From Mycobacteriales bacterium (GTDB lineage Bacteria > Actinomycetota > Actinomycetes > JAFAQI01), in assembly GCA_036267755.1 (NCBI GenBank), contig DATAVK010000137.1, positions 1,513-65,512 of the forward strand: DNA of 64,000 bases, given 5' to 3'. Under the pieces are notes generated by a model. The model worked only from the letters and a program-made list of their open reading frames with translations, searched no databases and was not told the origin of the DNA. Shown piece after piece: positions 26,884 through 64,000 of this stretch. Position 1 is the first letter of the stretch. The number at the start of each line of letters is the position of its first letter. The translations under genes and the position numbers were made by a program.

Positions 26884-26960
26884 CGGGATGTAGCGCAGCT
26901 TGGTAGCGCACCTCGTTCGGGACGAGGGGGTCGCAGGTTCAAATCCTGTCATCCCGACCA
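26884..26960 (+). tRNA. tRNA-Pro (anticodon CGG), CCA encoded
   Basis: Cloverleaf read by eye. The acceptor is CGGGATG/CATCCCG, the anticodon stem CCTCG/CGAGG with loop TTCGGGA, the T-arm GGTTCAAATCC, the discriminator A, then CCA. Confidence 0.9.
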
Positions 26961-28325: not shown

Positions 28326-29846
28326 CTAGCGGATCCGGAGCCCGGACAGCTTCCGCCAGACGCGGTAGAGCTCGGCGTGGGCCTGTTCCGCCCGCGCCTG
28401 CTCCAGTCCGAGCAGGATCCCGTACGTGAACCCGGACTCTCCGCTGGCGGCCTGCGCCTTGATCGCGAGACCCCTCAGCAGGCCGCGGGAGACGACGCCG
28501 TCCTGGTAGTCACCGAGCAGTTCCTGAACGGCCTCGGCCCGCTTGGCGAGCCGTTTGGCGTCCTTCCCGAAATCCTCGCTGAGCGTCTCGCCGGCGTACC
28601 GAAGTCGCTTGGCGGCTTTCCGAGCGCGGTGGTGGGCGACGTCACGTTCTTCGCCTGGTGCTGCGTCCTCCGTCGCGGCGACCCGGCGCTGCAGTTTGCG
28701 GTACGCCTTCGTCACCAGCTTCGGCAGGACGTCGCGGGCGGCGCGTTGCGCTTCATCGGTGTACGGCGGATCCATGACGAACGAATCGAGCTCGGCCAGC
28801 AGCGCGCGGTACCGCGCGCCCCGCAGCGCCGTGAGCAAGCGCTTGCGGGCCGTGACGAGCTCAGGCTGCAGCGTCGACTCGATCCGCTGCTTCACGGGGC
28901 CCATCACGAGCTCGGGCGGCTGGTCGTCGACCGCCGCTGTGAAGCGCTCCAGCTGGACCTCGCGATCCCTCACGTCGCCGAGCACGCCGGCGATCCACTG
29001 AAGCTCGGCGTCGAGCGCCGCCGCCCGGGCCGGGTCGAACATCGAGTGGAAGGTCTTCAACAGGCTGCGCAACCGACGGCTGGCCACCCGCATCTTGTGG
29101 ACCGAGTCGGGAAGGTCCTGCCGCACCGTCGGATCGGCCGCCACCATCGCCTGGGCCTGCGCCGCCAGATAGCGACCGAGCACGTCCGCGGCGATTGCGC
29201 CTCTGCCGTGGCCGCCGCGGGTCATCGGGTCGGCCGGCGCAGCCGCGAGCTCGGCCACGAACAGCCGCTCGGGCCCCGCCGGGTCGGTAGGCCGACCACC
29301 GGCGGCTCGCATCGCGTCGCCGAGCGTCCGGAGCCGTTTCCGATTGCCGTTCAGTGATTCGACGCTGACCTCACGCCAGTGCTCGGCGCGTGTCTGCGCG
29401 CCCATGAGCTGGGCGTCGACGCGGTCGTCCACCAGCTGGGCTACCGGCTTGCCGTCACCCTTGTGGAACAGGTAGACGCTGCGCTCCGTGCGCAATCGCG
29501 CCACCGGTTTCGGCGCGGCGCCGCGAAGCTGGCCAGTCACGAGGTCGTTGACCTCGGCAGGCACGGTGCGGCCGCGGCCGGCCGGCCGCCACAACGGGTC
29601 GGGCTCGTCATCGAGGACAGGCGATGTGAGATACCAGCCTGGATTGATGGCATCGGTACGGCGCGACAACCGCGAGCCCGCGCGCAGCAGGCGCAGGTCG
29701 GTCGAGTCGTAGTAGACCTCGTCACGGGTCTCGGTCAGCGGCTCCTGGGGCGTGCTCAGCTCGGCACAGTGCTGGGCGATCGCCACGAGGAGATCGGCGT
29801 CGCCATCCACGTCGTACCGCTTCTGCACGCTGCGATGCTGGCGCAC
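28326..29846 (-). CDS. CYTH and CHAD domain-containing protein
   Basis: ORF 28326..30173 trimmed to the GTG at 29846 (VRQHRSVQKRYDVD...). It has an N-terminal CYTH-like region and a C-terminal CHAD helical region (VHKMRVASRRLRSLLKTF, HHRARKAAKRLRYAGE). The start is approximate. Confidence 0.8.
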   Translation of the reverse strand: MRQHRSVQKRYDVDGDADLLVAIAQHCAELSTPQEPLTETRDEVYYDSTDLRLLRAGSRLSRRTDAINPGWYLTSPVLDDEPDPLWRPAGRGRTVPAEVNDLVTGQLRGAAPKPVARLRTERSVYLFHKGDGKPVAQLVDDRVDAQLMGAQTRAEHWREVSVESLNGNRKRLRTLGDAMRAAGGRPTDPAGPERLFVAELAAAPADPMTRGGHGRGAIAADVLGRYLAAQAQAMVAADPTVRQDLPDSVHKMRVASRRLRSLLKTFHSMFDPARAAALDAELQWIAGVLGDVRDREVQLERFTAAVDDQPPELVMGPVKQRIESTLQPELVTARKRLLTALRGARYRALLAELDSFVMDPPYTDEAQRAARDVLPKLVTKAYRKLQRRVAATEDAAPGEERDVAHHRARKAAKRLRYAGETLSEDFGKDAKRLAKRAEAVQELLGDYQDGVVSRGLLRGLAIKAQAASGESGFTYGILLGLEQARAEQAHAELYRVWRKLSGLRIR

Positions 29847-30035
29847 TGCCCCTCCGTTGTCGATCCCTTGCGATCTCCAGGCTTTCTCGGCACTGTCGTG
29901 GCTAGCAGGATGACGGCCCACGGCGGGTGAACACTCGGTGAACGACCTGTTCGCCCGGCGGCATCGCCGTACCCGTGGGGCAGATTGTGCTCGGGCCGTC
30001 TGGGGCGGGATGCGTAGCCACGCAGCGGAGGTGTC

Positions 30036-30968
30036 ATGGCGAAGCAGGCAACACGACCATCGAAGTCGCAAGGCGGCCCGATCAAGGCCGCCGATCTGCA
30101 GAACGGTCTGGACGGCCACGAGATCGAGGTTCGCACCGACGAGACCGGTAACCCGGTGCTGCTCGACGGGCACGGTGAGCCAGTCGATACCTGGCGTGAG
30201 GGGTATCCCTACGACACCCGGATGACAAGGCGGGAGTACGACCGCCAGAAGCGGCTGCTGCAGATCGAGCTGCTGAAGCTCCAGTCATGGGTGAAGGCCG
30301 ACAGCCGCCGGCTCGTGATCCTCTTCGAGGGTCGTGACGCGGCCGGCAAGGGCGGCACGATCCGGCGGTTCACCGAGCATCTCAATCCCCGCGGCGCGCG
30401 CGTGGTGGCGCTCGAGAAACCCACCGAGGTGCAGCGCACCCAGTGGTACTTCCAGCGGTACGTCGAGGAGCTGCCGAGCGGCGGTGAGATCGTGCTGTTC
30501 GACCGCTCCTGGTACAACCGGGCCGGCGTCGAGCGGGTGATGGGGTTCTGCACCGACGCTGAGTACGAACGGTTCATGAGCCAGACACCGCAGCTCGAGT
30601 CGATGCTCGTCGAGGACGGGATCGACCTGGTCAAGTTCTGGTTCTCGGTGACCCAGGGTGAGCAGCTGACCCGTTTCACGCTGCGCCGGGTCGATGCCGT
30701 GAAGCAGTGGAAGCTCAGCAAGATGGACCTCGAGTCGCTCGACAAGTGGGACGACTACACCGAGGCCAAGGAGCGAATGTTCCGGAGCACCCACACCAAA
30801 GAGGCACCGTGGACGGTCGTGAAGACCAACGACAAGAAGCGAGGCCGGATCGAGGCGATGCGTTACGTGCTGTCGCGCTTCGACTACCCCGACAAGGACG
30901 CCCAGGCAGTCGGTACGCCAGACCTGTTGATCGTCGGCCCGCCCGACACGGTCCTGGAGGACCGCTGA
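30036..30968 (+). CDS. ppk2: Polyphosphate kinase 2
   Basis: 310-aa ORF with the PPK2 Walker A FEGRDAAGKGGTIRRF and RSWYNRAGVERVMGF. Confidence 0.9.
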   Translation: MAKQATRPSKSQGGPIKAADLQNGLDGHEIEVRTDETGNPVLLDGHGEPVDTWREGYPYDTRMTRREYDRQKRLLQIELLKLQSWVKADSRRLVILFEGRDAAGKGGTIRRFTEHLNPRGARVVALEKPTEVQRTQWYFQRYVEELPSGGEIVLFDRSWYNRAGVERVMGFCTDAEYERFMSQTPQLESMLVEDGIDLVKFWFSVTQGEQLTRFTLRRVDAVKQWKLSKMDLESLDKWDDYTEAKERMFRSTHTKEAPWTVVKTNDKKRGRIEAMRYVLSRFDYPDKDAQAVGTPDLLIVGPPDTVLEDR

Positions 30969-38293: not shown

Positions 38294-38379
38294 GGAGGAT
38301 TCGCCTAGTTGGCCTATGGCGCACGCTTGGAAAGCGTGTTGGGGGTAACCCCTCGCGAGTTCGAATCTCGCATCCTCCG
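38294..38379 (+). tRNA. tRNA-Ser (anticodon GGA)
   Basis: The acceptor is GGAGGAT/ATCCTCC, the anticodon stem CACGC/GCGTG with loop TTGGAAA. It has a long variable arm (TTGGGGGTAACCCCTC), the T-arm GAGTTCGAATCTC and discriminator G. CCA is not encoded. Confidence 0.9.
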
Positions 38380-38609
38380 CTGGCTGGCCGAGCCGACGGA
38401 AGCAAGCGAACGGCGACGCAGCGAACGGCCGAGCGACACCGGAGGTTCCGATCGCGACGTCGGCGCGGCCCGCGACCTGGCCGACGTACGCCGGGCCCCT
38501 GCTCCTCGCCGTCTCCTTCGGGTGCCTCGCCGCCGTCGCGATCCTCGGGCCCAGCGCCGCCGAGCCGCCGCTCGGCGCCGCCGACGACGGGGCCACCCCG
38601 CCGTGGCAC

Positions 38610-46964: not shown

Positions 46965-47054
46965 TGGCGGTGGAGGTGGGATTTGAACCCACGGAGGAGT
47001 TGCCCCCTCACACGCTTTCGAGGCGTGCTCCTTCGGCCGCTCGGACACTCCACC
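46965..47054 (-). tRNA. tRNA-Ser (anticodon CGA), CCA encoded
   Basis: The minus strand reads GGTGGAGTGTCCGAGCGGCCGAAGGAGCACGCCTCGAAAGCGTGTGAGGGGGCAACTCCTCCGTGGGTTCAAATCCCACCTCCACCGCCA. It has the anticodon loop CTCGAAA and a long variable arm. Confidence 0.9.
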
Positions 47055-52155: not shown

Positions 52156-53325
52156 TCAGCCGGGCCGGACGGCACCGATGTAGTCGGAGCGGTCGTAGGG
52201 CTCGACCCTGACGTCCGCGCCGGTGAACGGAGCGTCGATCATGTTGCCGCCGCCGACGTAGATGCCGACGTGGTGGATCGTCGACGCGTTGTGCACGTTG
52301 TAGGCGAAGAACACCAGGTCCCCCGGCTCCAGCTGGGACTGCGAGACGTGCGTGCCCTCGTTCCACTGGTCACCGGTGAAGTGACCCAGTGCGACACCGG
52401 CCTTGCCCCAGACGTACATCGTGAGACCCGAGCAGTCGAACGAGTTCGGTCCGGCGGCCGCCCAGACGTAGGGCTTGCCCAGCTCCCGGTAGGCCCACTC
52501 GACGGCGACCTTCGCGCCACCGGAGGCCGCGACCGGACCGGACGAGACTGGCGCCGGCGCGGGTGCGGGTGCCGGCGCTTGTGCCGGCGGAGCGGAGCGG
52601 AGCTGTTCCGCGGCACGGCGCTCAGCTATCTGCTGGGCCGCCAGCGCGGCAGCCCGTCGTTCCGCGGCGAGCCGGGCTCGCCGAGCCTTCGCTGCCTTGA
52701 TGATGGCGCGCTCCTTGGCACGCAGCTGCCCGAGCAGGCGCTCGGCCTGGGCCGCGGCCGACAGGATCTGGCTGCGGGCGGCCGCCACTGCCTTCACGTC
52801 CGCCTGCTGAGCCGCGAGCGCCGCACTCGACGTGGCCTTGGCTTCCTCTTCCGCGCGACGGGCAGCGGCCACCTCGACGAGCTTCGCGGCCTGGCTCTCG
52901 CTGACCGCCTGCAGCGACGTCATCCGGGAGACCATCAGTCCGGCCGAGCCGGTGTCGGTCAGGGTCAGCAACGGGTTGATGGTGTCCCCGCGGTATGCCG
53001 CAACAGCGAACGCGGTGACCGACTTCTGCAATGCGTTGGCCTTTGTCTCGGCCTTGGCCAAGGCCTGCTGCGCGATGGCGGCGGTCTGCTGGGCAGTGGC
53101 CAGCTTGTCGCGCGCTGCGTCGTACCGCTCGCTGGCCGCCTCGACCTTGACGTTGAGGACACGCAGCCGGTGCTGCACCGAGCCGATCCGTGCCTTGACG
53201 GTCCCGACGGACCCGCCGTTGGCCGCGACTGACGGCGGCGCGAAGGCGAGAGCTCCCGACGTGAGGCAGGCGGATGTGGCGGTGAGTGCCACAACGAGAC
53301 GCAACGTGAGGGGGGCTCGGCGCAC
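52156..53325 (-). CDS. NlpC/P60 (C40) peptidoglycan endopeptidase with N-terminal coiled coil (RipA-like)
   Basis: 389-aa ORF (GTG start) with a signal peptide, a long Ala/Gln/Lys coiled coil, and the catalytic FDCSGLTMYVW ... IHHVGIYVGGG. Confidence 0.9.
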   Translation of the reverse strand: MRRAPLTLRLVVALTATSACLTSGALAFAPPSVAANGGSVGTVKARIGSVQHRLRVLNVKVEAASERYDAARDKLATAQQTAAIAQQALAKAETKANALQKSVTAFAVAAYRGDTINPLLTLTDTGSAGLMVSRMTSLQAVSESQAAKLVEVAAARRAEEEAKATSSAALAAQQADVKAVAAARSQILSAAAQAERLLGQLRAKERAIIKAAKARRARLAAERRAAALAAQQIAERRAAEQLRSAPPAQAPAPAPAPAPVSSGPVAASGGAKVAVEWAYRELGKPYVWAAAGPNSFDCSGLTMYVWGKAGVALGHFTGDQWNEGTHVSQSQLEPGDLVFFAYNVHNASTIHHVGIYVGGGNMIDAPFTGADVRVEPYDRSDYIGAVRPG

Positions 53326-53722: not shown

Positions 53723-54844
53723 GTGACCCGCCGGGGCCTGCCCTCCCGACGTGGCGCGCTGATAGCTACTGGCTCGCCGCTAGCGATCGCGGCGACGCTC
53801 GCGTTGGCTTCGACACACTCTGGCGGGAGCGCAGCCCGGCTCGACACGACGGTCAAGGACGTCGCCGGCCCGCATTTTCCGTTGCCGCCGTTCGCCGCCA
53901 CTCCGACCGTGGTCCCGCTGGACCGCACGGTCACAGTGCGCATCCGGCCACGCCACCAGCCGCCGGCCACTGCCAAGGGGGCGGCGCTTCCGACCACGCT
54001 CAATGTCACCAACGAGCAGATACCGCGCCGCGTGCTCGCGGCGTACGTCAATGCCGCCATGATCGCTGACCGGCGCAACCCCAACTGTGGGCTGTCGTGG
54101 CAGATCCTCGCCGGGATCGGGTACGTCGAGTCGGACAACGCGCGCTCGGGGGGATCCGGTGCGCCCCAATGGGATGGCGAGGCTTCGCCACACATCCTCG
54201 GCCCGGTGCTGGACGGCAAGGGAAAGGTCGCCGCGATTCCGGACACCGACGGCGGTCGTCTCGACGGGAACGCCACGTGGGACCGGGCGGTAGGGCCGAT
54301 GCAGTTCCTGCCGTCCACTTGGGCGGAGTACGCGGCCGATGGCAACCACGACGGCGTCAAGGACCCAGAACAGATCGACGACGCCACCCTCGCGGCCGGC
54401 GACTACCTGTGTGCGGCAGGGTCGAGACTGGCGCGTCCCCTTCAGCTGATCCGTGCCGTGCTGTCCTACAACCACTCGATCGCCTACGTCCGCGACGTCC
54501 TCACCGTGGCCGCGCACTATCAGGGCATCGACCCCAAGAAGTTGGGAATCGGGCTGCTCCCACATCGCCACCACAAGCACCGCGGTCGGCGCCATGGCAA
54601 GCATCGCCACGGGCTTGGGAAGCCGCGCCTCACACCGACGCCGACTCCCTCTGGCGGTCCACCGACTGTGCCACTGCCGACGCCAACACCGACGCCGACG
54701 GACACCGCGGTTCCGACCCCGAGTGCCACGGGTTCACCGAGTCCCTCGGCGACGCCGGATCCGAGCCACTCACTTACGCCGTCGCCGAGCAGCGCGCCTA
54801 CCGACACGCCGACCGACGATCCGTCCGCGACACCGACATCCTGA
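53723..54844 (+). CDS. Secreted lytic murein transglycosylase (MltB/SLT_2-like) with His-rich and Pro/Thr-rich tail
   Basis: 373-aa ORF (GTG start) with a signal, the core LAGIGYVESDNARSGG...GPMQFLPSTWAEYAADGNHDG...DATLAAGDYLC, then HRHHKHRGRRHGKHRH and a PTPTPT tail. Confidence 0.8.
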   Translation: MTRRGLPSRRGALIATGSPLAIAATLALASTHSGGSAARLDTTVKDVAGPHFPLPPFAATPTVVPLDRTVTVRIRPRHQPPATAKGAALPTTLNVTNEQIPRRVLAAYVNAAMIADRRNPNCGLSWQILAGIGYVESDNARSGGSGAPQWDGEASPHILGPVLDGKGKVAAIPDTDGGRLDGNATWDRAVGPMQFLPSTWAEYAADGNHDGVKDPEQIDDATLAAGDYLCAAGSRLARPLQLIRAVLSYNHSIAYVRDVLTVAAHYQGIDPKKLGIGLLPHRHHKHRGRRHGKHRHGLGKPRLTPTPTPSGGPPTVPLPTPTPTPTDTAVPTPSATGSPSPSATPDPSHSLTPSPSSAPTDTPTDDPSATPTS

Positions 54845-54871: not shown

Positions 54872-54901
54872 GGAGGGGCGACCCGATCGGGCCGCCCCTC
54901 C
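54872..54901. terminator. Bidirectional terminator hairpin between the transglycosylase gene and the surface cluster
   Basis: ggaggggcg-a-cccga|tcggg-c-cgcccctcc forms a 14-bp stem with one mismatch. On the + strand it is followed by attattcgtt. Confidence 0.6.
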
Positions 54902-54925: not shown

Positions 54926-56116
54926 TCACTTCTTCTTGACCGTCACGCTCTTCGACTTGGCTGTTGCTGACTTGTAATGCGCGCGCTTCGCGGTGACGCG
55001 GCAGGACAGCTTCTTGCCCACCTCAGACGTCTTGAGGGTGATGGACGACTTCGTCGCCTTCTTGATCTTCTTGGAGCCGAGGTACCACTGGTAGCTGTAC
55101 GACGTCGCCTTCGGCGACCAGCTGCCCTTGCTGACCTTCTCCTTCTTACCGGCCTTGTGGGATCCGGAGAGCTTCGGCTTGGCCGTGTTGGTCAACGCGA
55201 CCTCTACGACAGTGAGCTTGGTTGCCTTGGAGACCGATGCGGCGAACAACGAACTGGTCGGGGTGAATGTTGCCGTGATCGAGTGCCTGCCCGGCAGCAG
55301 CGACGATGTCGTCAAGGTCGCGACGCCGGTCGTCTTGACCGTGACGGCCTTCCCGAGCTTCTTGCCGCTGTCCGCGAACTGCACGCTGCCGGCCGGGTGA
55401 CTACTGCCTGCCGCCTCGGTAGCGGTCAGGGTGACTTTCTTGCCTTCCTTGACCGATCCGGACGGCGACACCTTGAGCGAGGTGCTCGTGGCCGTCGCGA
55501 CTCCCGGGAACGTCTCGGTCCAGGTGCCTCCCGTGACGGCGCCACCGCTCGTCGTGATGTTGCTCACCACGATGTCCAGTGACTGATAGGTGCCGTTGGT
55601 GGAGGTCTTGACCCGGAGCTGATAGGCGTTGCCGTAGCCGTCGGTCGTGCTGGTGTCGGTGTTGGCAACATCGTCGATGTACGACGCGATGCTCTCGTCG
55701 GTGTCGTGTCCCGTAACGACCGGGCCCTTTGCGCTCTTCACGACTGCGGGGGCGCCCGAGTTCGTGACGGGGTAGGGCGTTGACACGGTCAGCTGCTCAC
55801 CGGGCCACGCGCTCGGCGCCAGGCCGTTGTGCGGGGTGTACATGTACGCGGTGGCCTTGGGGTGAGCCGTGTCCGCCTTCGACCCGACGATGTACGCGAC
55901 AGTCGGTGAGTCCATGACGCTGCCGGTCGTTACCTGGGTGCCGCTGCTGTTGTACAGCGCAAGGGTTCCGACCTCATTCACGTCCCTCGTCGCGCCGACC
56001 TCCCAGGGTGGTGGCGTGCTTCCTGAGGCGTTGGACGCGACCAATGTGGCGCCACCGGAGAACAGGAGTGTCGCTGCACCCACGGCGGCGATGGACCGAG
56101 TTACTGCGCGTGTCAT
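54926..56116 (-). CDS. Secreted surface protein: shared N-terminal domain + bacterial Ig-like domain + Lys-rich C-terminal repeat domain
   Basis: ORF 54926..56149 trimmed to the ATG at 56116, with gaaaggg upstream. It has a signal peptide and an N-domain ~55% identical by eye to that of 58280..60049. The Ig-like repeat reads VTLTATEAAGSSHPAGSVQFADSGKKLG...GRHSITATFTPTS. The C-terminus reads SWSPKATSYSYQWYLGSKKIKKAT... Confidence 0.75.
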   Translation of the reverse strand: MTRAVTRSIAAVGAATLLFSGGATLVASNASGSTPPPWEVGATRDVNEVGTLALYNSSGTQVTTGSVMDSPTVAYIVGSKADTAHPKATAYMYTPHNGLAPSAWPGEQLTVSTPYPVTNSGAPAVVKSAKGPVVTGHDTDESIASYIDDVANTDTSTTDGYGNAYQLRVKTSTNGTYQSLDIVVSNITTSGGAVTGGTWTETFPGVATATSTSLKVSPSGSVKEGKKVTLTATEAAGSSHPAGSVQFADSGKKLGKAVTVKTTGVATLTTSSLLPGRHSITATFTPTSSLFAASVSKATKLTVVEVALTNTAKPKLSGSHKAGKKEKVSKGSWSPKATSYSYQWYLGSKKIKKATKSSITLKTSEVGKKLSCRVTAKRAHYKSATAKSKSVTVKKK

Positions 56117-56243
56117 CGAGGCCCTTTCGGCTGACTCGGATAAGTACATGGTCGACTAGAACGTAGGTCCGAAAGCTGTCGTGAACACCGCACGAGTGCA
56201 CCGTTCACGGCGTCTTCATGTGGCGTACACGGACGCCTGTTCC

Positions 56244-57101
56244 TCATGTTCGGTGGCGCAGGGTGAGTGCTCCGCCCGCTGCAATGACGACCGCGAGAGC
56301 GATCACGATCCCGAGGTTTCGGCCAGTGTGCGACGGGCCCGACGACGCGGCCGAGGACGTCGCACCGGACGCGTCGGGCGAGTTGGACGCAGAGACTGCG
56401 CTGGCACCCGCCGACTGCGTTGCGCCGGGGTCCGGAGCCGCCGTCCCGTCGGCCCCGGGCTGTTGGGTCGCTCCCGGCGTTGGCTTGACCTTGAAGTCCT
56501 TCTTGGGAAGCGTCAGCGTCTCGACCGACACCGACGAGCCCGAGGTCGAGCAGTCCGCCGGTCCGGGACTGAGCTGAGTCCACCGCCCATTGCTGACCCG
56601 GAGGTACGTCGCGTCGTAGAGAATCGAGTACGGCGGTTGTTTCGGAGATCCAAGATAGATCCGGAGCTGAATCAGTCCCAGCGGCGAGAGTGGATAGTCC
56701 CCGAAATAGCTTGCGAGCGACTCGTCGATGACTGTCGCGGCCGCCATCGGATGCGACGGGTTGGTGTACCTCGCCGACGCGGTCAACTGCTCACCGCTCC
56801 AATCGCCAGGCGGCACTTGCGGTCGCGGTTGGTAGGCGAACAGCGTCGCGGTTCCCCCCTCGCCGTAACCCTTCGGCGCGGCCGTGGTGTCCACGGCCCG
56901 CCACACCACCGGCTTTGCCGAGATCGAGCCGGAGGTGATCTGCTGCCCGTTCTGGCCACACAGCGTGATTGCTCCTACCGCCGAAGAGTCGGCCGGAGGA
57001 GCGCCAGCGGCGGCGGCGGCCGGTGCCATGAAACTGACGGCGCTCACCAGGCCGGCCGATAGCACAACCCCTGCGCCCACCATCCGGCGGCTGCTCCTCA
57101 T
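56244..57101 (-). CDS. Cell-wall-sorted surface protein: shared N-terminal domain + Ser/Ala/Gly linker + PSHTG sorting signal
   Basis: 285-aa ORF with a signal peptide. The C-terminus is GPSHTG-RN-LGIVIALAVVIAAGGALTL-RHRT, that is motif, hydrophobic helix, then basic tail. The ATG overlaps the upstream stop (ATGA 57098-57101). Confidence 0.7.
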   Translation of the reverse strand: MRSSRRMVGAGVVLSAGLVSAVSFMAPAAAAAGAPPADSSAVGAITLCGQNGQQITSGSISAKPVVWRAVDTTAAPKGYGEGGTATLFAYQPRPQVPPGDWSGEQLTASARYTNPSHPMAAATVIDESLASYFGDYPLSPLGLIQLRIYLGSPKQPPYSILYDATYLRVSNGRWTQLSPGPADCSTSGSSVSVETLTLPKKDFKVKPTPGATQQPGADGTAAPDPGATQSAGASAVSASNSPDASGATSSAASSGPSHTGRNLGIVIALAVVIAAGGALTLRHRT

Positions 57102-58195
57102 GTCCTGACTCCCTGCGGCTTGGCGAGGTCACGGGATGGCTCCACTGGCCGCTTGCGTCGCCGCCGACGCGCGTAACCCCAAGCCAAGCCGAGAATCAGG
57201 AGCAGCAGGACAACGAGCAATATCCACGGGATGGCCAGGAAGTGAACGCTGGCGGTCACCGGGTGCAGTCCCGGATCGACCTGCCCCTGCAGGCCCGTCG
57301 TGTCGACCGTCACCTTGGCCGACATCCAGACTTCGGGGTAGACACCGGGCACCTTCACGGTGACGGGGTACGACGCGCCAGGCAGCAGCGCGGGGACGTC
57401 CGCGACGTGGGCCGCGGTGACCGACTCACCGAACAAGCCGTGCACGGTCACCGTCTGTGGTCCGCCGAGGATCACGTTGCCCCCGTTGTGCACGGTGTAG
57501 GTCACGGTGGCCTGACCCTTTGCGAACGGGTCGATGGGCCCGCGGTAACTGGCATGCAGCTGTTGGACGCTCAGCTGCGGATGCAGCGGACCAGTGACTC
57601 GGAAGAGGGCCTTTACGGCGATTCGCTGGTCGAACTTGACCTTCTGCTTGCTCCCCTGCCCGAAGCTTCCGGCGATGCGCCCACTCAGCGACACGACGAC
57701 CGCGCCGACGTGGTCGCCGGGTGGGGCGTTGCGCGGAACCGCAACGTGTACCGGCACGATGACTGTCGAGCGTGGCTTGACGGTGATGCGCCCAGACCCT
57801 CCCGGCGTTCCCACCGCCAGCCAGGCGCCCGCTTGCTTGCGCGGTGCCGACGGCGCGGCGTAAGCGATGGTCCCGTTCGCAGCAGCCACCGCGTCGACCG
57901 GGTAGACCTGCAGCGTCTCTGGCTTGTAACTGATGTTGAGGATCGCCAGGTGATCCGTGAGCCGTCCTCCTGGCGTGGTGCCGAAGGTGAAGTAGGGCCG
58001 GCCGTCGACGCCCAGGACCTTCTTCCCGTGGACCAGCTTCTCGCTCGCCGGGGCCGCCCCGAACGTGGCGTTGACGGTCCGCTTTCCCGCGTGCGGAGCC
58101 GCCTGGCTGGGCGCGGCCGCGATGACGGTGGCGCCGAGAGCCACTGAGACAGCGAAGGCTTTCGCGAAGCGTCGCACGTAGTAGGCCAATCTCAA
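57098..58195 (-). CDS. DUF916-like cell-surface protein with DUF3324-like C-terminal domain and TM anchor (CscA-like)
   Basis: 365-aa ORF with a TTG start at 58195 (or GTG at 58177) and a signal peptide. It has YFTFGTTPGGRLTDHLAILN, VPRNAPPGDHVGAVVV and VTYTVHNGGNVILGG. The C-terminal TM is IPWILLVVLLLLILGLAWGY followed by RRRRRKR. Confidence 0.75.
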   Translation of the reverse strand: MRLAYYVRRFAKAFAVSVALGATVIAAAPSQAAPHAGKRTVNATFGAAPASEKLVHGKKVLGVDGRPYFTFGTTPGGRLTDHLAILNISYKPETLQVYPVDAVAAANGTIAYAAPSAPRKQAGAWLAVGTPGGSGRITVKPRSTVIVPVHVAVPRNAPPGDHVGAVVVSLSGRIAGSFGQGSKQKVKFDQRIAVKALFRVTGPLHPQLSVQQLHASYRGPIDPFAKGQATVTYTVHNGGNVILGGPQTVTVHGLFGESVTAAHVADVPALLPGASYPVTVKVPGVYPEVWMSAKVTVDTTGLQGQVDPGLHPVTASVHFLAIPWILLVVLLLLILGLAWGYARRRRRKRPVEPSRDLAKPQGVRT

Positions 58196-58211
58196 TCAGT
58201 GAGGGCATGAG

Positions 58212-58252
58212 CCGGTGGGCTGGGACAGAAACTGCCTGTCCCAGCCCACCGG
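58212..58252 (-). terminator. Strong hairpin terminator after the WxL-like gene
   Basis: There is a 17-bp perfect stem, ccggtgggctgggacag (58212-58228) / ctgtcccagcccaccgg (58236-58252), with a 7-nt loop. It lies 28 nt downstream of the stop at 58280. Confidence 0.65.
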
Positions 58253-58279
58253 ATGGAGCTCAGTAGCGATACCGCCCGG

Positions 58280-60049
58280 TCAGTCGCTGACCGTGAACAG
58301 GATCGTTCCTGTGTAGGTACCCGACGCGGTCGACGTCGGCGCGTTGAGCGTGAGCACGCCGTCGTAGGTCGCGGTTCCCTCGCCACCGGCAGAGCCGCCG
58401 AGGACGGGGTGGGAGATGCCGCCACCGAGACCGGCGGAACCCGGGTCACTGACCGGGACACCGTTCGCGGCGTTGTTGTCCTGCGCTGACACCGAACCGT
58501 TGTAGCTGTTGACCGGCGTGGAACCGTCCGGGCAGGCAGCCGTGCTCTTCGAGATCTGACTCAGGCCGACGTTCTCAGGGTTGATGGTCGTGACGGCGGT
58601 CGCCGGCTGGCTCGGGTTCCCACTACCCGGAACCTGCGACAGCTGGTTGGCCTCGGCGGAAGCCGCGAACGGTGATCCACCGGAGGTCATGTCAGTGACC
58701 GTGATGCACTGGAACGTCGCGTGACCGGTCCAGAAGGTGCCGTCCGAGCTCAGCGCCAGCGTGCCCACGTCCAACGGCTTGGTGTCCGTGTACGGGGTGC
58801 TGATGACCAATGTGCCCGGCGGGATCTCACCCTGGATGGTCTGGGTGTCCGAGCATGCGGACCCGGTGGCGGCGCAGGCGCCGGTCGCCGGGGTCGAGGT
58901 GATGAAGGTCACCGGCTGCGACTGCGACGAGTTGAAGTCGGCCGTGTCGGTCGGGGTGAACTTCGCGACCACAGAGTGCGATCCTGCGGCGAAACCACCC
59001 GGCAGCGAGAAGGTGTATGGCCCTCCGCCTGTGGTGGTCACGGTCGTCGTGCCGAGGGCCGTGGTGCTGGAGCCGTCGAAGAACGACACGCTGCCGGCCT
59101 GGGAGACGCTTCCGCTCAATGTCGCCGCAGTGCCAGTTGTCGTGTTGCCCGAGATGGTCAGCGTTGTCGTGGTCGGCGTCTTCGCTGCCTGAACGACCTG
59201 GCTCACGGTCCCGAATGATCCCGAGAAGTCCGCCGTGTCGGTCGGGGTGAACGTTGCCTTGACCGCGTGCGTGCCGACGGCCAGAGTGCTCGTGGCGAAC
59301 GTCGCCACCCCACTGCCGGAGACGGGAACCGGGCTACCCGAGTTCGTCCCGTCCACCGAGAACTGCACCGAACCAGCCTGGTGCGTGGCGCCGGAGGACT
59401 CCGTCGCGGTGAAGGTGACGTTGTCACCCGAAGTCGACGGGTTCTCCGACGAGGTCAGGCTGGTCTGGGTAGAGCTGGCCACCGCGGGGAACACCTGGGT
59501 CCAGGTGCTGCCGCTGACAGAAATGTCGGACGACCAGTACGTGCCGCTCGTCCCGGTCTTGACCCGCACCTGGTAGAGGCCGGCATAGCCGTCCGTCGTC
59601 GAGGTGTCGGTGTTCGGGTTGTCAGCGATGTAGTCCGACAGGTCCTCATCCGTTGCCGCCCCGGTCACGACCGGGTTCGAGCCCTCACCGTTGATCGGTG
59701 CCGGAGCAGAGGTGTTCGGGTACGTCGTGGACAGCGAGGACTGCTCACCGGTCCAGGCGCTCGGGGCAATCCCGTTCTTCGGGGTGTAGAAGTACAGCGT
59801 CGCCTTGGTGTGACCCGCGTCGGCGGACGAAGCGACTGTGTACGCCGCGATCGGCGCGTCGGTGATCGAGCCAGACGTGATCTGGGTGCCACTGGAGTTG
59901 TAGAACGCCAAGGTGCCGATCTCGTTCGGGTCGGTGCCCTCGAAGGGGGGTGCGGCCGCATTGGCCGCACCCGCCCCGACGAGGAGCATCGCCCCGGTCA
60001 TGGTCAGGGTTGCGGCCCCGGCCATGACTGTTGCGAAGCGCATCTTCAT
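58280..60049 (-). CDS. Secreted surface protein: shared N-terminal domain + Ig-like repeats + C-terminal WxL-like domain (CscB/C-like)
   Basis: 589-aa ORF with a signal peptide (GAGAANA|AAPP). It has two or three Ig-like repeats (GSVQFSVDG...GTHAVKATFTPTDTADF; GSVSFFDG...GSHSVVAKFTPTDTADF). The C-terminal ~200 aa show WxL-domain hallmarks (GTLVISTP...LDVGTL, ITVTDMTSG, final GTYTGTILFTVSD), but the WxL tripeptides themselves are degenerate. Confidence 0.75.
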   Translation of the reverse strand: MKMRFATVMAGAATLTMTGAMLLVGAGAANAAAPPFEGTDPNEIGTLAFYNSSGTQITSGSITDAPIAAYTVASSADAGHTKATLYFYTPKNGIAPSAWTGEQSSLSTTYPNTSAPAPINGEGSNPVVTGAATDEDLSDYIADNPNTDTSTTDGYAGLYQVRVKTGTSGTYWSSDISVSGSTWTQVFPAVASSTQTSLTSSENPSTSGDNVTFTATESSGATHQAGSVQFSVDGTNSGSPVPVSGSGVATFATSTLAVGTHAVKATFTPTDTADFSGSFGTVSQVVQAAKTPTTTTLTISGNTTTGTAATLSGSVSQAGSVSFFDGSSTTALGTTTVTTTGGGPYTFSLPGGFAAGSHSVVAKFTPTDTADFNSSQSQPVTFITSTPATGACAATGSACSDTQTIQGEIPPGTLVISTPYTDTKPLDVGTLALSSDGTFWTGHATFQCITVTDMTSGGSPFAASAEANQLSQVPGSGNPSQPATAVTTINPENVGLSQISKSTAACPDGSTPVNSYNGSVSAQDNNAANGVPVSDPGSAGLGGGISHPVLGGSAGGEGTATYDGVLTLNAPTSTASGTYTGTILFTVSD

Positions 60050-60135
60050 GTCTCTCCCTATGTGGTGGTGCTGGAAGTGGTTCTCGGTCGTGCGCAGATT
60101 GAGCAGGCCGTGCTAGTTCAGGGCTCAGGCATCCA

Positions 60136-61347
60136 CTAGCAGCTCGTGGGGTTGACCCCACAGTCCTTGTAGCCACCGGTGGCTCCGGCGGCGGCGACCA
60201 GTGCCTGGCCGGGAGCGCTCTTGAAGTACGGCGTGCCCGCACTCGAGGAGAAGAGCGTCTGCCACAGGTTCTTGGCGATGCCGGGCTGGAACGGGGTCGA
60301 GCTCGACAGGTCCTTCTGCTTGAACACGATGAACAAGCCCCGGTTGTCGTCGTAGGCGACATTCGGCGCGGTCGAGCCGGTCGGAACCGGTCCGAGCACG
60401 GTGCCGGTGTCCATCTTGATTCCAGGACTGAGTGCAGCCCCGCCCGGGAAGGCAGTTGCCGGGTCGTGGAAGTAGCCGCTGTTGTACAGCGCCAACCGAC
60501 TGCCGGAGAACGGCACGATGGCGTCTGCGGCAGGCCCGAAGTTGCCGGAGGTGATGGCGGTCGGGTCGTTCTCCTCCGACGTCTTGACGCAGCCGCCGAG
60601 GGTGATGGTGCTCTGGCCCGCAGCGGTCTCGATGTCTGAGAGGAAGCTGCTTCGGGTGCCGGACCCGGCCTGCGGGATGATCGGGTCGATGGAGTCGCTG
60701 GACGAACCGCCGATACCCGAGTCATTCCAGTGGGTGAAGCCGGCGTCGCACTGGTACACGTGGTAGAGCTGCGCCGCAGACAGCGGCACCGCGTTGGAAC
60801 CGGTCTTCAACTCGGCCAGCTGGAGGTCCTCCGAACCGAGCTTGACGACGTGAAGGCCGCCGAAGCCGGCGGTTCCTGCAGCCGTCTCCTCGGCACCGGT
60901 CGGGAGCCGCGATGCCCGGACGTAGCTGATCTCGCCATCGGGAAACGCGGTCGTGTTGGCGTCGGCGAGTAGCGCCGCGATGCCGGCGCCCGAGCCGTTG
61001 GGACGCTGGACCGGGTTGGTCCCGGCGCGCAGCACGATCGTCGGGTTGAGCGGAAGCAGCGTCGCGTTCGTGCTGCCGTTGAGGTAGCCGGCACGAGCGT
61101 TGGCGTCCGGTGTCGCGTCGAAGCTCACCAGCTTGTTCACGTTCCCCGCGCTGTTGTAGCCGAGGTCGCCGCCCGTGTCGCCGTCCGCCCCGAAGTCCAT
61201 CAGGTACTGGACTGTGTCCGAGCCGACGCCGACGGCGTCGGCTGCTGAGGGGGCGTAGTCGGCGTGCGCCGGCGCTGCCATCGCGAAAGTCATCGCTCCG
61301 GCTGCGGCGGTGGCGAGGCCGACTCGCACCTTGGTCTTCATGCGCAT
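60136..61347 (-). CDS. Secreted PstS-fold (type-2 periplasmic binding protein, PBP_like_2) protein
   Basis: ORF 60136..61455 trimmed to the ATG at 61347, with ggaagg upstream. It has a signal peptide (AMAAPAHA|D) and PstS-like motifs GVGSDTVQYL, RPNGSGAGIAAL and PQAGSGTRSSF. There are four Cys. Confidence 0.7.
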   Translation of the reverse strand: MRMKTKVRVGLATAAAGAMTFAMAAPAHADYAPSAADAVGVGSDTVQYLMDFGADGDTGGDLGYNSAGNVNKLVSFDATPDANARAGYLNGSTNATLLPLNPTIVLRAGTNPVQRPNGSGAGIAALLADANTTAFPDGEISYVRASRLPTGAEETAAGTAGFGGLHVVKLGSEDLQLAELKTGSNAVPLSAAQLYHVYQCDAGFTHWNDSGIGGSSSDSIDPIIPQAGSGTRSSFLSDIETAAGQSTITLGGCVKTSEENDPTAITSGNFGPAADAIVPFSGSRLALYNSGYFHDPATAFPGGAALSPGIKMDTGTVLGPVPTGSTAPNVAYDDNRGLFIVFKQKDLSSSTPFQPGIAKNLWQTLFSSSAGTPYFKSAPGQALVAAAGATGGYKDCGVNPTSC

Positions 61348-61528
61348 GTGTGTGCCTTCCGTGGGTCTGTTGGTGTGCGCCTGGCGAGGTGACAATCGCG
61401 GATCCAAACCGCTACAAGGCGGTGCTTGGATGAACCGCGGATGAACCTGTCCCATCGGGCCACGGCGAACAGGACATCCCGGCGCGGGCGAGCGTCGTAG
61501 ACCGCCCCAAATGGGGGCAGAACCAGGC

Positions 61529-62521
61529 TCAGACCAGATTGGGGAGCAGCCGCAATGTCTCGCTGCTGATCAGCCAGAGCACCACAAGAACGAGCGGGGC
61601 GCCGGCCAGCCAGGCCTGCCACCTGCCCCACCGCGCATTAGCCCAGACAACCCCTGCAGCAACGAGCAGCAGGACCTGTAGCCAGAGCACGAGCGGCACG
61701 AGACCGCCGGTGTCCGAGTGCATCTCCGTCGCGGAGGTCGCGATCGTTGTGGGACGCCCGGACGGAGCCGGTTGCACGTGGCCCTTCATCGTCGCGTCGA
61801 CGAAAACCGGGCTACCGGGTGCCCACCCGCTGCGCCAGCCGCTGCCGCGTGAGGTGACCAGCGTGAGCCGGCTCGCGGTCGCCGCCAACGTCGGCGGAAG
61901 TGGGTCGCCGTTGCCGCGAACGTCGGTGACCGTATAGGTGAAGACTCCCTGGCCGGTCGTGACCGTTATCGGGTCGCCGACATGCAACGACGCTACGTGT
62001 CGGAAGGGTGCACCGAACGTCACGCTGCGGCCCATGACGACCGACACCCCGGCCTGGCCCGGAAGGGCGGTGTTCTGCTGATGGCCGGGGCCATCGCGCA
62101 TGACACCGGCCGTCGTGCCTTCGACGACGACGACGCGCCTGAGCCCGGCTTCGGGGGCGGTCATCACCGCAATCGGCGTGCCAGGCTCGATCGCCCCGCC
62201 GAAGGGCGCGACCTCCTCGGCAAGGGATTGCCGAATCGAGGCGTACAGCCGGTGCTGCGCGCTGCGCTCCTGGATCGCACTCAGTCCGATGGCGTAAACC
62301 AGCAGCCAGATCGCGATCAGACTCAGCATGGCCAGTGCGGTCACGACCGTCGTGGCCAGCGCCGAGGGTGGTGGCAGCGCATCCCCGCCGCGAGGCGGTG
62401 CCACCCAGTGCCTCACCCGGCCCGCGATCAGCCGCCAGCGTGGCTGCTGCTGCTCCGGAGCGGGATTGGGGCTGACATCGCCACTCACGGTCGTCGGCCG
62501 CGAGGTCTCGGTCGTGGTCAC
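61529..62521 (-). CDS. Sortase-fold (class E-like) membrane protein lacking the catalytic Cys and His
   Basis: 330-aa ORF with a GTG start overlapping the upstream stop (GTGA). It has an N-terminal TM and the class E-like core GPGHQQNTALPGQAGVSVVMGRSVTFGAPF...GDPITVTT...FTYTVT...RLTLVTS, plus two C-terminal TM helices. The protein has no Cys. Confidence 0.75.
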   Translation of the reverse strand: MTTTETSRPTTVSGDVSPNPAPEQQQPRWRLIAGRVRHWVAPPRGGDALPPPSALATTVVTALAMLSLIAIWLLVYAIGLSAIQERSAQHRLYASIRQSLAEEVAPFGGAIEPGTPIAVMTAPEAGLRRVVVVEGTTAGVMRDGPGHQQNTALPGQAGVSVVMGRSVTFGAPFRHVASLHVGDPITVTTGQGVFTYTVTDVRGNGDPLPPTLAATASRLTLVTSRGSGWRSGWAPGSPVFVDATMKGHVQPAPSGRPTTIATSATEMHSDTGGLVPLVLWLQVLLLVAAGVVWANARWGRWQAWLAGAPLVLVVLWLISSETLRLLPNLV

Positions 62522-64000
62522 CGGGCTCGCCGCCAGTAGCGCAGTCGGACGATGAGCGGCGCGAGCAACCCTGACAGCAAGGCAAGGCCGAGGAGTGCGG
62601 GGAGCGCCGTACCGGCGACCGACGACGAGGCAGCGGCCGTGGTCCCTGGCGAAGTGGCCGGCGATGAGCCGGCGACCTGCGGTGTGGTGCCCTTACCAGG
62701 CTTCCCCGTCTTGTCCGACCCGGCCGGTGGGGTGGCGGTGTCCCCGCCACCGCCCGTGCCATCTCCGCCACCCGCTGACGAACCGGTGCCTGAACCTGTT
62801 CCGGGCCCGGTCCCTGTCTGACCGCCCGAGTTCGAGCCCACGAGCGACGGCAGCGCGCCGTGCTGGGCTTGGACCGCAGCTGCCGCCCGGGTGGTGTACG
62901 ACGCAAGCTGGCCCAACCCGGCTGCCTTGGTCATCGGGAGATATCCAGGCGGCAGCTGGCCGTTGCCGAAGCCTCTGACCTGACCGTCGGTCGCGGCGTA
63001 CCTCAGCAGCTTCGCGTAGTCGGCGGCGACGCCCTTGGGCAGACCCTTGGTGGGGACGGCCGTGTAGACGATCATCGTGCCGGGATACGCCTTGGCGCCG
63101 GCGGGCGTGGTGCGCATTGTGGTGGCGTTGATGGGCCAGGTACCCGTCGCCGAATCGGGCTTGGCCAGGTCGATCGCCGCTTTCATCGACGCATCGGTCG
63201 GACTCACGAACACGCGTCCGGCCGAACTCGTGAACTTCGCTGAGGCGGTCGGCGCGGTCTGGGTCTCCAGCGACGCCATGTCGAGCCGGTAGCGCTGGGC
63301 GTCCGCGATCGAGGTCACACCGAGCATGAAGCGGAAGCCCGGGTTCTGGCGGCCGATCGAGATCAGTTTCTCGCCCGCGCTCACCCCCTGCAACGGCTGC
63401 GAGCAGACGGTCTGGGAGTTGGCGATGGCGAACTGCATCGCGAGTGAGATCTGGCTCAGCCGCTGGACCGGTGCCGCGACGAGCGGAAGGTAAGGCACCG
63501 GGGTGTTGAACAGGCAGTCGTTGAGCCCCGGCTGGTAGATGTCCTTGGGCTCGTACGTGTCGAGCAACGGCCAGGTGTTCAGGGGGAGCTTGATGCCGCG
63601 ATAAGCCTTGTTGACGACCATCCCCCAGGGGTCCGGCTTCCCGTTCAGCCAGGCGCGCGCCTCCGGGTCGGCATTGATGTAGGAGGTGAGTGCGTACATC
63701 ACGTCCGACTCGCTGGAGAGGCTGAGAAGGGTTGCTGCCACTTGAGAAGACGTCGAGATGCCTGGGTTGAGCGCCTGGAACTCCGGATCCTCGGTGATAT
63801 TCAGCGGGTTGTGGGACAGCGCCTTGTCGCCGGTCTGGATATCCGTCAGGGCGGGATATGACTCGGTCATGAGCTTCGCAAGCAGTCGCGGGTCGAGCTT
63901 GAGCGTGGCGACCGGCCGGCCCTCTACATTGTCGACGTCGAAGGTGACCGCGAAGCCGGAGACGGCCGTGGGTGCGTTGACGGTCGGCTCGGGGTATCCC
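62518..64000 (-). CDS. Large membrane-anchored surface protein with PstS/PBP-like C-terminal half; 5' end outside the window
   Basis: The frame stays open upstream of the Met at 63870, to position 63999 (GYPEPTVNAPTAVSGFAVTFDVDNVEG...). It has the PBP-like segment AYPGTMIVYTAVP...LLRYAATDGQ...LPPGYLPM, a Gly/Thr/Ser-rich linker, and a C-terminal TM LPALLGLALLSGLLAPLIV followed by RLRYWRRAR. Confidence 0.6.
   Translation of the reverse strand, partial: GYPEPTVNAPTAVSGFAVTFDVDNVEGRPVATLKLDPRLLAKLMTESYPALTDIQTGDKALSHNPLNITEDPEFQALNPGISTSSQVAATLLSLSSESDVMYALTSYINADPEARAWLNGKPDPWGMVVNKAYRGIKLPLNTWPLLDTYEPKDIYQPGLNDCLFNTPVPYLPLVAAPVQRLSQISLAMQFAIANSQTVCSQPLQGVSAGEKLISIGRQNPGFRFMLGVTSIADAQRYRLDMASLETQTAPTASAKFTSSAGRVFVSPTDASMKAAIDLAKPDSATGTWPINATTMRTTPAGAKAYPGTMIVYTAVPTKGLPKGVAADYAKLLRYAATDGQVRGFGNGQLPPGYLPMTKAAGLGQLASYTTRAAAAVQAQHGALPSLVGSNSGGQTGTGPGTGSGTGSSAGGGDGTGGGGDTATPPAGSDKTGKPGKGTTPQVAGSSPATSPGTTAAASSSVAGTALPALLGLALLSGLLAPLIVRLRYWRRAR

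Follow-up and report, generated by a model that had tools for sequence, protein, structure and literature searches.

To our knowledge, sortases are known only as cysteine transpeptidases. Surface receptors that serve an importer are found in corynebacteria, where the HtaA/HtaB-HmuTUV system has receptors with C-terminal transmembrane (TM) anchors that relay heme inward beside an ATP-binding cassette (ABC) importer, and several PstS paralogues lie in one pst locus in M. tuberculosis. A different kind of surface assembly is encoded by the WxL/Csc clusters (cscA-D) of Firmicutes, which bring together a WxLIP protein (DUF916, DUF3324 and a TM helix) with small and large WxL proteins (PMC1534035, PMC9772566, PMC10599100). 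As defined by Hassan et al. (2023), a WxL cluster holds a WxLIP protein, with DUF916 directly followed by DUF3324 and a C-terminal TM helix, and at least two WxL proteins (small and large) within four genes, an LPxTG protein being frequent and optional (PMC10599100); 91% of known WxL proteins are found in Firmicutes. Here we describe a cluster of seven genes (g1 to g7) at positions 54926-64000 of a 64,000-nucleotide stretch of DNA from a Mycobacteriales bacterium (contig DATAVK010000137.1; the whole stretch is hereafter called the window), which was originally predicted to be a Csc/WxL-like surface cluster extended by a cysteine-less sortase homologue and two PstS-fold proteins.

The reading that we prefer, at a probability of roughly 0.55, is that the window carries the distal genes of a two-module actinobacterial envelope system for phosphate-starvation capture and import, in which a catalytically dead sortase would act as a non-catalytic membrane partner.

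The gene cluster and its sortase-like protein

The seven open reading frames (ORFs) are co-oriented on the minus strand and lie where the original prediction had placed them, and the frame of g1 continues without an in-frame stop to the window edge, so that its 5' part is missing. Both of the predicted four-nucleotide overlaps are present, the g1 stop being overlapped by the GTG start of g2 (GTGA) and the g5 stop sharing ATGA with the g6 start, and so are the two predicted hairpins. The longest ORF for g3 begins at 61455; the ATG at 61347 was preferred as its start because it gives a signal-peptide-like N-terminus (MRMKTKVRVGL...), the orthologues are 390-450 aa long and a promoter element lies inside the extension. 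The G+C content is 64-71%, and the nearest relatives are soil metagenome-assembled genomes (MAGs), some of them labelled Frankiaceae. The features are as follows.

62518 to beyond 64000, minus strand: g1 (called BIG below), the C-terminal ~493 aa of an envelope protein of ~910 aa, 5' end off the window
61529-62521, minus strand: g2, membrane-bound sortase-fold pseudoenzyme, GTG start
61425-61446, minus strand: PHO box, two 11-nt direct repeats GTTCATCCGCG GTTCATCCAAG, ~99 nt 5' of the g3 ATG
60136-61347, minus strand: g3, secreted PstS-fold (PBP_like_2) protein
58280-60049, minus strand: g4, signal peptide, shared N-domain, two Big_3_5 domains, divergent WxL-like C-terminal domain
58212-58252, minus strand: stem-loop in the g4-g5 spacer, perfect 17-bp stem, 7-nt loop, no U tract; candidate partial terminator or RNA-stability element
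57098-58195, minus strand: g5, signal peptide, DUF916 (WxLIP_PGBD), second immunoglobulin (Ig)-like domain, TM helix, Arg-rich tail
56244-57101, minus strand: g6, signal peptide, shared N-domain, low-complexity linker, C-terminal TM helix, basic tail
56203-56229, plus strand: PHO-box-like repeats GTTCACGGCGT CTTCATGTGGC in the g6-g7 spacer, antisense to g7
54926-56149, minus strand: g7, secreted, with shared N-domain, Big_3_5 and Lys-rich C-terminal domain
54872-54901, minus strand: terminator-like hairpin, GC-rich, 13 pairs, closing the cluster

An exact-sequence lookup of g2 gave no match, and its genomic context was therefore taken from homologues. A scan of one genome per species yielded 77 loci, and the components were counted by tblastn over 81 loci, with the flanks limited to 10 kb; ORFs in these loci were called as the longest ORF, and the lengths are often over-extended in high-GC DNA. 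Individual loci are cited by number (L001 and so on) where they need to be told apart.

The most surprising element of the cluster is the dead-sortase family to which g2 belongs. The protein matches the Pfam family Sortase (1.5e-12) and contains no cysteine, and with the NCBIfam class E sortase model it scores 72.1 bits, under the cut-off of 160. An N-terminal TM helix is followed by an extracytoplasmic beta-barrel and two C-terminal TM helices. The AlphaFold2 (AF2) model (pLDDT 68) has the same helices with the barrel at residues 117-246, its top matches in Foldseek are all sortases, and the profile of the g2 family matched the PDB entries 5GO6, 5UUS and 4D70 at ~1e-17.

Catalytic residues were compared by aligning a 20-member profile of the g2 family to the solved class E sortase 5GO6 (SrtE). 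The catalytic His (AGH) is replaced by G[R/K], the Cys of LTLVTC by Ser, Ala, Thr, Val or Glu, and the column of the catalytic Arg is variable; the residue that takes the place of the catalytic Cys is Ser (TLVTS) in the window copy and in those closely related to it. With His, Cys and Arg all lost, g2 is therefore predicted to be unable to act as a transpeptidase. The loss extends far beyond the window. Cysteine is absent at the TLxTC position in 120 of the 120 best g2 homologues, and a profile search of 1.84 billion representatives placed 580 clusters (50% identity) in the family at E<=1e-30; among its 150 best representatives the TLxTC motif occurs in none, and an AGH[RS] string stands somewhere in the sequence in four. 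Judged by these residues, g2 belongs to a large family of catalytically dead sortases, in agreement with the original description of a cysteine-less, apparently inactive sortase homologue.

The C-terminus of the family is almost invariant ([L/F/M][L/M]PN[L/V/T/I/M]x-COOH in 138 of 150 representatives). Of the 81 loci, 46 have the end LLPNL, several from Nocardioidaceae (Nocardioides, Marmoricola) have LLPNTL, and the window copy ends in LLPNLV (61529-61546). By topology prediction this LPxT-like LPN tail would be extracytoplasmic, after the last TM helix, and it may serve as a built-in pseudo-substrate or as an oligomerisation tail.

The link between g2 and BIG includes both the translational coupling through GTGA and a fusion of the two in one metagenomic representative (P0373, 1211 aa), the membrane topology of which is consistent; P0373 could be a Rosetta-stone fusion or a frameshift artefact. 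A conserved LPxTG/LAxTG-like motif was not found in the C-termini of g6, BIG and a tail-anchored PstS that is encoded beyond the window. In the same comparison a hydrophobic-Pro sequence opens the TM helix of BIG, and an LPP lies near the cytoplasmic end of the TM helix of the PstS.

The Pst-type core and its probable regulation

In three homologue neighbourhoods the genes follow the order ABC_tran, two BPD_transp_1, PBP_like_2 (~540-560 aa), the ~910-aa protein, Sortase and PBP_like_2 (~400 aa), and continue with Big_3_5 (~600 aa), a protein of ~360 aa, one of ~290 aa and a further Big_3_5. The first four were scored in L002 with the NCBIfam models.

PstB: 334 (333.9) bits, cut-off 343 (343.2); below the cut-off, with PstB by far the best-scoring family
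PstC: 239.5 bits, cut-off 196.45; passes the curated equivalog cut-off
PstA: 200.6 bits, cut-off 193.45; passes the curated equivalog cut-off
PstS-like protein of 559 aa: 173 (172.9) bits, cut-off 205; below the cut-off

The components were found by tblastn in the following numbers of loci.

Dead sortase (g2): 81/81
BIG (g1): 75/81
Tail-anchored PstS: 70/81
PstB, PstC and PstA: 68, 67 and 68 of 81
g3-type binding protein (PBP), downstream of the dead sortase: 64/81
g4: 50/81
g7: 45/81
g6: 39/81
g5: 36/81

Gene order depends on the lineage while the core set is retained, the core of Kitasatospora running PBP-BIG-C-A-S-sortase-B and that of Nocardioides BIG-sortase-B-C-A-S. Since the core set is kept across lineages while g4-g7 are variably present, g1-g3 were assigned to the importer core. 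The sortase and the PstS-fold genes belong to this core, and g4-g7 are a facultative second module. The gene set is co-localised in many genomes, as had been anticipated, with the polarity reversed: where a Csc cluster extended by a sortase and binding proteins had been proposed, g1-g3 are the tail of an invariant Pst-like core and g4-g7 the addition.

The 77 loci are labelled Actinomycetota or bear no phylum name, except for one labelled Acidobacteriota; odd labels of MAGs (Acidobacteriota, Rhodopila) are probably binning errors. MAG carriers include Frankiales-type bacteria, Acidothermaceae, Sporichthyaceae, Jatrophihabitans, Nanopelagicales and Acidimicrobiia, and the cultured carriers are Kitasatospora spp., Streptomyces lactacystinicus, Actinokineospora, Actinosynnema, Amycolatopsis, Kutzneria, Micromonospora and Nocardioides. 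A small ORF, u1 (~150-200 aa, weak DUF7144 match; L002:1943-2416), precedes pstB and heads the core operon in ~12 loci, where it sits downstream of a PHO-like box.

Three PstS-fold proteins accompany the importer. By sequence, g1 has no Pfam match and a weak NCBIfam PstS match, and among 276 BIG homologues just one has a Pfam domain (PBP_like_2). The part within the window consists of a PstS-fold domain, a low-complexity linker rich in Gly, Ser, Thr and Pro, a C-terminal TM helix and a basic tail, and the helix and tail are conserved among the homologues; the full-length protein in L002 has 908 aa. A fold search was required because the match of the BIG profile to the PDB by sequence was marginal (E 0.18). 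The AF2 model of a full-length homologue, P0129 (26-sequence alignment; pLDDT 81.8, pTM 0.78), begins with ~300 aa that are beta-rich and Cys-rich, which are followed by the PstS-fold domain, by ~80 aa of disordered linker and, as the fourth part, by a TM helix. In Foldseek it matched M. tuberculosis PstS-1 and PstS-3 and E. coli PstS with E-values of 1e-11 to 1e-8 and a target TM-score of 0.71-0.79 (0.73-0.79 for the matches at 1e-11). No match was found for the Cys-rich beta domain. In a manual alignment on the ...DP.F.ALNPG... signature, Leu, Asp and Val replace the phosphate-binding Arg, Gly and Thr of PstS in BIG, and the Ser is kept.

The secreted protein g3 matches Pfam PBP_like_2 (4e-8; 33.8 bits, cut-off 27) and, weakly, NCBIfam PstS, and has no match in the PDB by sequence; it has a signal peptide and neither a lipobox nor a TM anchor. 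The PstS folds that were originally proposed for g1 and g3 are accordingly supported, for g3 by this match and for g1 through the model of its homologue. The third protein, the tail-anchored PstS (559 aa in L002, ~540-560 aa in homologous loci), lies outside the window and has a linker, a C-terminal TM helix and a basic tail like those of BIG. Compared with 8ODS and 4LVQ, it keeps the Ser, Asp and Ser-Gly-Ser/Thr ligand positions, and Arg135 is changed to His.

The Streptomyces PhoP direct-repeat unit has the 11-nt consensus G(G/T)TCAYYYR(G/C)G (PMC2275107), to which the two units of the g3 box, GTTCATCCGCG and GTTCATCCAAG, conform at 11/11 and 10/11 positions. An exact match to GTTCAY-N5-GTTCA stands within this box (61446-61431, minus strand). 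A box of this type with at most one mismatch, in sense orientation and at -90 to -130, occurs in 29 of the 46 loci that have a g3-type gene; the background frequency is 0.094 per kb, the histogram of box positions has a single sharp peak, and exact copies stand directly after the sortase gene in 13 loci. Loose PHO-like matches with two mismatches are not above chance across the window (15 found, 12 expected), and significance was therefore drawn from the exact matches and the conserved position alone. Because a near-perfect Streptomyces-type box keeps its position upstream of g3, the cluster probably belongs to the Pho regulon, with the box as a predicted PhoP-type operator.

PHO-like boxes also lie 5' of the core operon in L001, L002, L006, L021 and L027, and upstream of g5-type and g7-type genes in several loci; single one-mismatch boxes are present in the loci of Actinokineospora, Actinosynnema, Amycolatopsis and Kutzneria. 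The element at 56203-56229 has the same relative orientation in L001 and L002, and sense-oriented boxes precede g7-type genes in L004, L016, L018 and L027; this element is weaker evidence than the g3 box. The only other exact PHO box in the window (GTTCACCGAGT GTTCACCCGCC, 29928-29943, minus strand) precedes the probable start of a gene for a CHAD-domain protein by ~80 nt (ORF 28326-30173, minus strand; Pfam CHAD 6.7e-62), and it adds to the support for a PhoP-type operator in this organism. CHAD domains are linked to polyphosphate, and by its box this looks like another gene of the Pho regulon, probably polyphosphate-related.

The accessory module

About half of the loci (36-50 of 81) have the genes g4-g7, which are not within 10 kb of the core in cultured genera such as Kitasatospora and Nocardioides. 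The block is inverted in the Acidimicrobiia-labelled loci L012-14 and L022-24 and lies upstream of the core in L082.

The originally predicted Ig repeats are present as Big_3_5 domains in g4 (two copies, 2e-16) and g7 (8.9e-15). The Lys-rich C-terminal domain of g7 appears Ig-like by eye and has no family match. A WxL-like end had also been claimed for g4, and here the result is divided. The C-terminal consensus of 32 orthologues, VTDTRxGxLPWTxSA...GTYxGTITFTV, resembles two WxL motifs by eye, and two of the 32 match Pfam WxL (PF13731) marginally (best 9.1e-5). The isolated C-terminal domains matched WxL at E 0.003 and covered positions 84-207 of the 214 in the profile, but their 18 bits stay below the cut-off (25 bits), and the window copy itself has no match. 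The term 'WxL-like' is used for g4 as a statement of marginal, remote homology.

The DUF916/DUF3324 anchor that had been proposed for g5 stands in its first part. DUF916 (WxLIP_PGBD) is matched at 2e-8 (34.7 bits, cut-off 27.3) and in 23 of 27 orthologues, and the C-terminal TM helix, which ends ...IPWILLVVLLLLILGLAWGYARRRRRKR..., is kept in the orthologue consensus. DUF3324 (WxLIP_HBD, PF11797), on the other hand, was found neither in g5 at E<=0.1 nor in the 27 orthologues at E<=1; the second Ig-like domain has weak CARDB/DUF7507 matches. In five loci g5 and g6 are fused in a single ORF of 640-710 aa (L007:14375-16360, L009:14347-16476, L034:14190-16187, L049:9417-11444 and L079:14405-16333), and the fusions retain the g5 TM helix, the Arg-rich loop, the signal-like helix of g6 and the g6 anchor, consistent with a topology of three TM helices.

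No Pfam match was obtained for g6. The 'PSHTG' sequence, on which the protein was originally held to be sorted, is confined to the closest relatives, and what is conserved is the low-complexity linker, the TM helix and an Arg-rich basic tail; 'PSHTG' was rejected as a sorting signal on this ground, and g6 is not a credible sortase substrate.

An N-terminal domain of ~150 aa is common to g4, g6 and g7, and matches neither Pfam nor, by sequence, the PDB. Its residues G22, G28 and R130 are invariant and A51, P94, Y139 and W151 nearly so, a pattern that points to a role in binding or structure and not in catalysis. The domain has no relation to the WxL-like end of g4 (hhalign probability 0.3%), for which reason g6 was rejected as a 'small WxL' protein.

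Measured against the published definition of a WxL cluster, g5 has the DUF916 domain and the C-terminal TM helix, while DUF3324 after DUF916, two WxL proteins within four genes and an LPxTG protein are missing. Of the proposal that g4-g6 mirror the Csc/WxL logic, the resemblance of g4 and g5 to a WxL/WxLIP pair holds, and the cluster as a whole falls outside the definition. Three distant homologues of g5 were looked up, and two of them (38-40% identity) are again beside a Pst-like core. The third (33% identity) lies in a heme-uptake ABC cluster (L083:809-11122) with Peripla_BP_2, FecCD, an ATPase and heme oxygenase, where the DUF916 protein adjoins two large proteins with repeats that are HtaA-like by eye; one of these (654 aa) has a WxL-like end by eye and no Pfam WxL match, and the other ends in a TM anchor. 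In Actinomycetota, pairs of this DUF916/WxL-like kind may therefore go together with nutrient importers.

The cluster is flanked by a coiled-coil NlpC/P60 peptidoglycan hydrolase (RipA-like; 52156-53325, minus strand) and an SLT_2 lytic transglycosylase with a Pro/Thr-rich tail (53723-54844, plus strand), and both neighbours recur in L001 and L002, which may reflect plain synteny or a wall-remodelling link. Elsewhere in the window, and unrelated to the cluster, lie tRNA-Pro(CGG) at 26884-26960, tRNA-Ser(GGA) at 38294-38380 and tRNA-Ser(CGA) at 46965-47054.

Proposed working, rival readings and known systems

The proposed working builds on the gene content, the folds, the loss of catalytic residues, the conserved linkage and the conserved PHO boxes, which are directly established, and adds to them an inferred ligand, relay and scaffold role. 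The first module, the core, would comprise the Pst-type ABC importer pstB-pstC-pstA just beyond the window edge together with three receptors, namely the tail-anchored PstS (~560 aa), the tail-anchored BIG (~910 aa) and the secreted g3. The accessory second module (g4-g7) would be a wall-docking set, similar in kind to those of lactic acid bacteria, made up of the DUF916 anchor and the three proteins with the shared N-domain, of which one has the divergent WxL-like end (g4), one is tail-anchored (g6) and one is secreted (g7). Under phosphate limitation a PhoP-type regulator would induce both modules; the secreted and the long-tethered PstS-fold proteins would catch their ligand, either phosphate or a phosphorylated compound, inside the thick wall or outside it, and would pass it on to PstCAB for translocation. 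By binding peptide segments in its old substrate groove, the dead sortase may keep the tail-anchored receptors close to the transporter, and the WxL/WxLIP-like module would give a wall-associated platform.

Several observations weigh against this reading. Most of the carriers are MAGs, and the pst transporter genes are off the window and were placed there from orthologous loci, the closest of which have 77-82% identity in g2. PstB and the PstS-like protein score below their cut-offs, and the ligand site of BIG appears altered, so that phosphate is possibly not bound, a point of low confidence that comes from the manual alignment. A PHO box with at most one mismatch was not found in the loci of Kitasatospora, Micromonospora and Nocardioides humilatus. 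About half of the loci have no g4-g7 within 10 kb, so that these genes are dispensable for the core, and g4 of the window has Phe at both of the Trp positions of the WxL motifs. The scaffold role of the dead sortase is much less certain than the rest, being argued from the coupling, one fusion and analogy, with a model of pLDDT 68.

Among the rival explanations, the one that comes closest to the original proposal is a single seven-gene adhesion complex of the Csc/WxL type, to which the sortase-like and PstS-fold proteins would have been recruited as accessories without a role in transport. DUF916 and WxL-like domains are indeed present, the seven genes are co-oriented and tightly packed and Ig-like domains are typical of adhesins. 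The explanation is nevertheless quite improbable, as 67-75 of the 81 loci have pstBCA and PstS linked to the sortase-like gene and g1, both of which persist without g4-g7 in Kitasatospora, Nocardioides, Actinokineospora and others, the PHO boxes indicate phosphate control and the cluster falls outside the WxL-cluster definition. Adhesion or nutrient capture had both been offered as a function at the outset, and it is nutrient capture that the conserved PHO boxes support. We also regard as improbable the view that a Pst paralogue and a surface cluster of WxL-like type have unrelated functions and are adjacent through inherited synteny only. Such a view is in keeping with the absence of the accessory module from about half of the loci, with the hairpin, the g3 box and the terminator as separate signals for transcription, and with the related DUF916 protein in the heme-uptake cluster, but the adjacency survives inversion (L012-14, L022-24) and relocation (L082) in MAGs labelled Actinomycetes and Acidimicrobiia, two of the three distant g5 homologues again adjoin the core, and PHO-like boxes precede g5- and g7-type genes in several loci.

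The nature of the ligand leads to a further alternative, in which the core handles another phosphorus-bearing or anionic ligand (fragments of teichoic-type wall polymers, polyphosphate or an organophosphate) or acts in sensing, with BIG as a degenerate receptor. It draws on the equivalog cut-offs that PstS and PstB fall under, on the canonical Arg, Gly and Thr ligands that BIG seems to have lost in the manual alignment, on the unmatched extra domain of BIG (~300 aa, Cys-rich, beta) and on the presence of three different PstS-fold proteins per cluster, which suggests a division of labour. We consider it unlikely, given that PstC and PstA score above the curated cut-offs, that the tail-anchored PstS retains the Ser/Asp/Ser-Gly-Ser ligand positions and that control by PHO boxes is typical of genes for scavenging orthophosphate. 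Lastly, g2 might still be an enzyme that uses another nucleophile, such as the Ser of TLVTS, which does replace Cys in the window copy and its close relatives. This is hardly conceivable and was rejected because the nucleophile position is variable (S/A/T/V/E) across the family; moreover, the catalytic His is Arg or Lys, the catalytic Arg is not conserved and no conserved sorting motif was found in g6, BIG and the tail-anchored PstS.

The preferred reading, a phosphate-starvation capture and import system in two modules, can be taken one step further, although we hold this extension to be doubtful. The dead sortase might be a structural subunit of a supercomplex of tail-anchored receptors and ABC importer, in which the peptide-binding groove, kept from the sortases, would clamp without catalysis the C-terminal anchor segments of BIG or PstS or its own extracytoplasmic LLPN[L/T]x tail, which resembles an LPxT pseudo-substrate, and the WxL/WxLIP-like modules of Actinomycetota might be general wall-spanning docking platforms that feed ABC importers (for phosphate, and for heme in L083) and not host adhesins.

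A large conserved family without the catalytic triad, fixed in a transporter operon, would be a clear pseudoenzyme of the bacterial cell envelope and a new kind of accessory protein for ABC importers; if the scaffold reading is true, it would be the first case of a sortase pseudoenzyme that serves as a scaffold. In the searched literature neither a sortase pseudoenzyme nor a linkage of sortase and pst genes was found to be described, and the same holds for the combination of a dead sortase and a giant PstS-fold protein in a Pst-type importer with a WxL-like docking module, in agreement with the novelty that had been supposed for the cluster. The cluster offers an idea of how scarce phosphate might be reached by soil actinomycetes, which are thick-walled and poor in lipoproteins: their binding proteins would be held on long tethers at the C-terminus or set free into the wall. 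The system would also extend WxL/WxLIP-type surface modules from gut Firmicutes to soil Actinomycetota, tied to nutrient uptake rather than to host adhesion. The core is open to genetics through the cultured carriers Kitasatospora, Actinokineospora, Amycolatopsis, Kutzneria and Nocardioides.

Among the described systems, the WxL/Csc clusters are resembled in that the TM-anchored DUF916 protein g5 has as neighbours the large secreted g4, the end of which is WxL-like, and the small anchored g6, all with signal peptides and in tightly clustered genes. They differ in that DUF3324, a small WxL protein and a conserved LPxTG are missing here and the one WxL-like domain is sub-threshold and without Trp in this copy, while three proteins have a new N-terminal domain, the host belongs to the Actinomycetota and there is a tie to an ABC importer and PHO boxes.

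The PstSCAB system and the PhoR-PhoP regulon of Streptomyces are matched by PstC and PstA above their cut-offs, a PstB-like ATPase, PstS-fold proteins and a PHO box of 11-nt direct repeats, and the multiplicity of PstS paralogues is shared with the pst locus of M. tuberculosis. Here, unlike in PstSCAB, the binding proteins are C-terminally TM-anchored on a long linker or secreted and not N-terminal lipoproteins, one of them (BIG, ~910 aa) carries an additional beta domain rich in Cys and has a ligand site that appears altered, and the operon includes a dead sortase as an integral, conserved component. Sortases are not mentioned in a 2021 review that covers phosphate transport in Streptomyces and related actinobacteria.

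The closest relatives of g2 in both sequence and structure are the class E sortases (SrtE1 and SrtE2 of S. coelicolor, SrtE of S. avermitilis, 5GO5/5GO6, and SrtE of Thermobifida fusca), with which it has in common the N-terminal membrane anchor, the GPGH...LPGQ.G motif block and the beta-barrel fold. It departs from them in the replacement of His, Cys and Arg, in two extra C-terminal TM helices, in the invariant [L/F/M][L/M]PN[L/V/T]x end and in the position of its gene, which is in a pst-like operon and not near LAxTG substrates. From the corynebacterial HtaA/HtaB-HmuTUV system the locus differs in its ligand, in its receptor folds and in having a sortase-like component. The two are functionally analogous in that TM-anchored surface receptors are encoded beside an ABC importer, to which, in the system described here, they would likewise relay what they capture.

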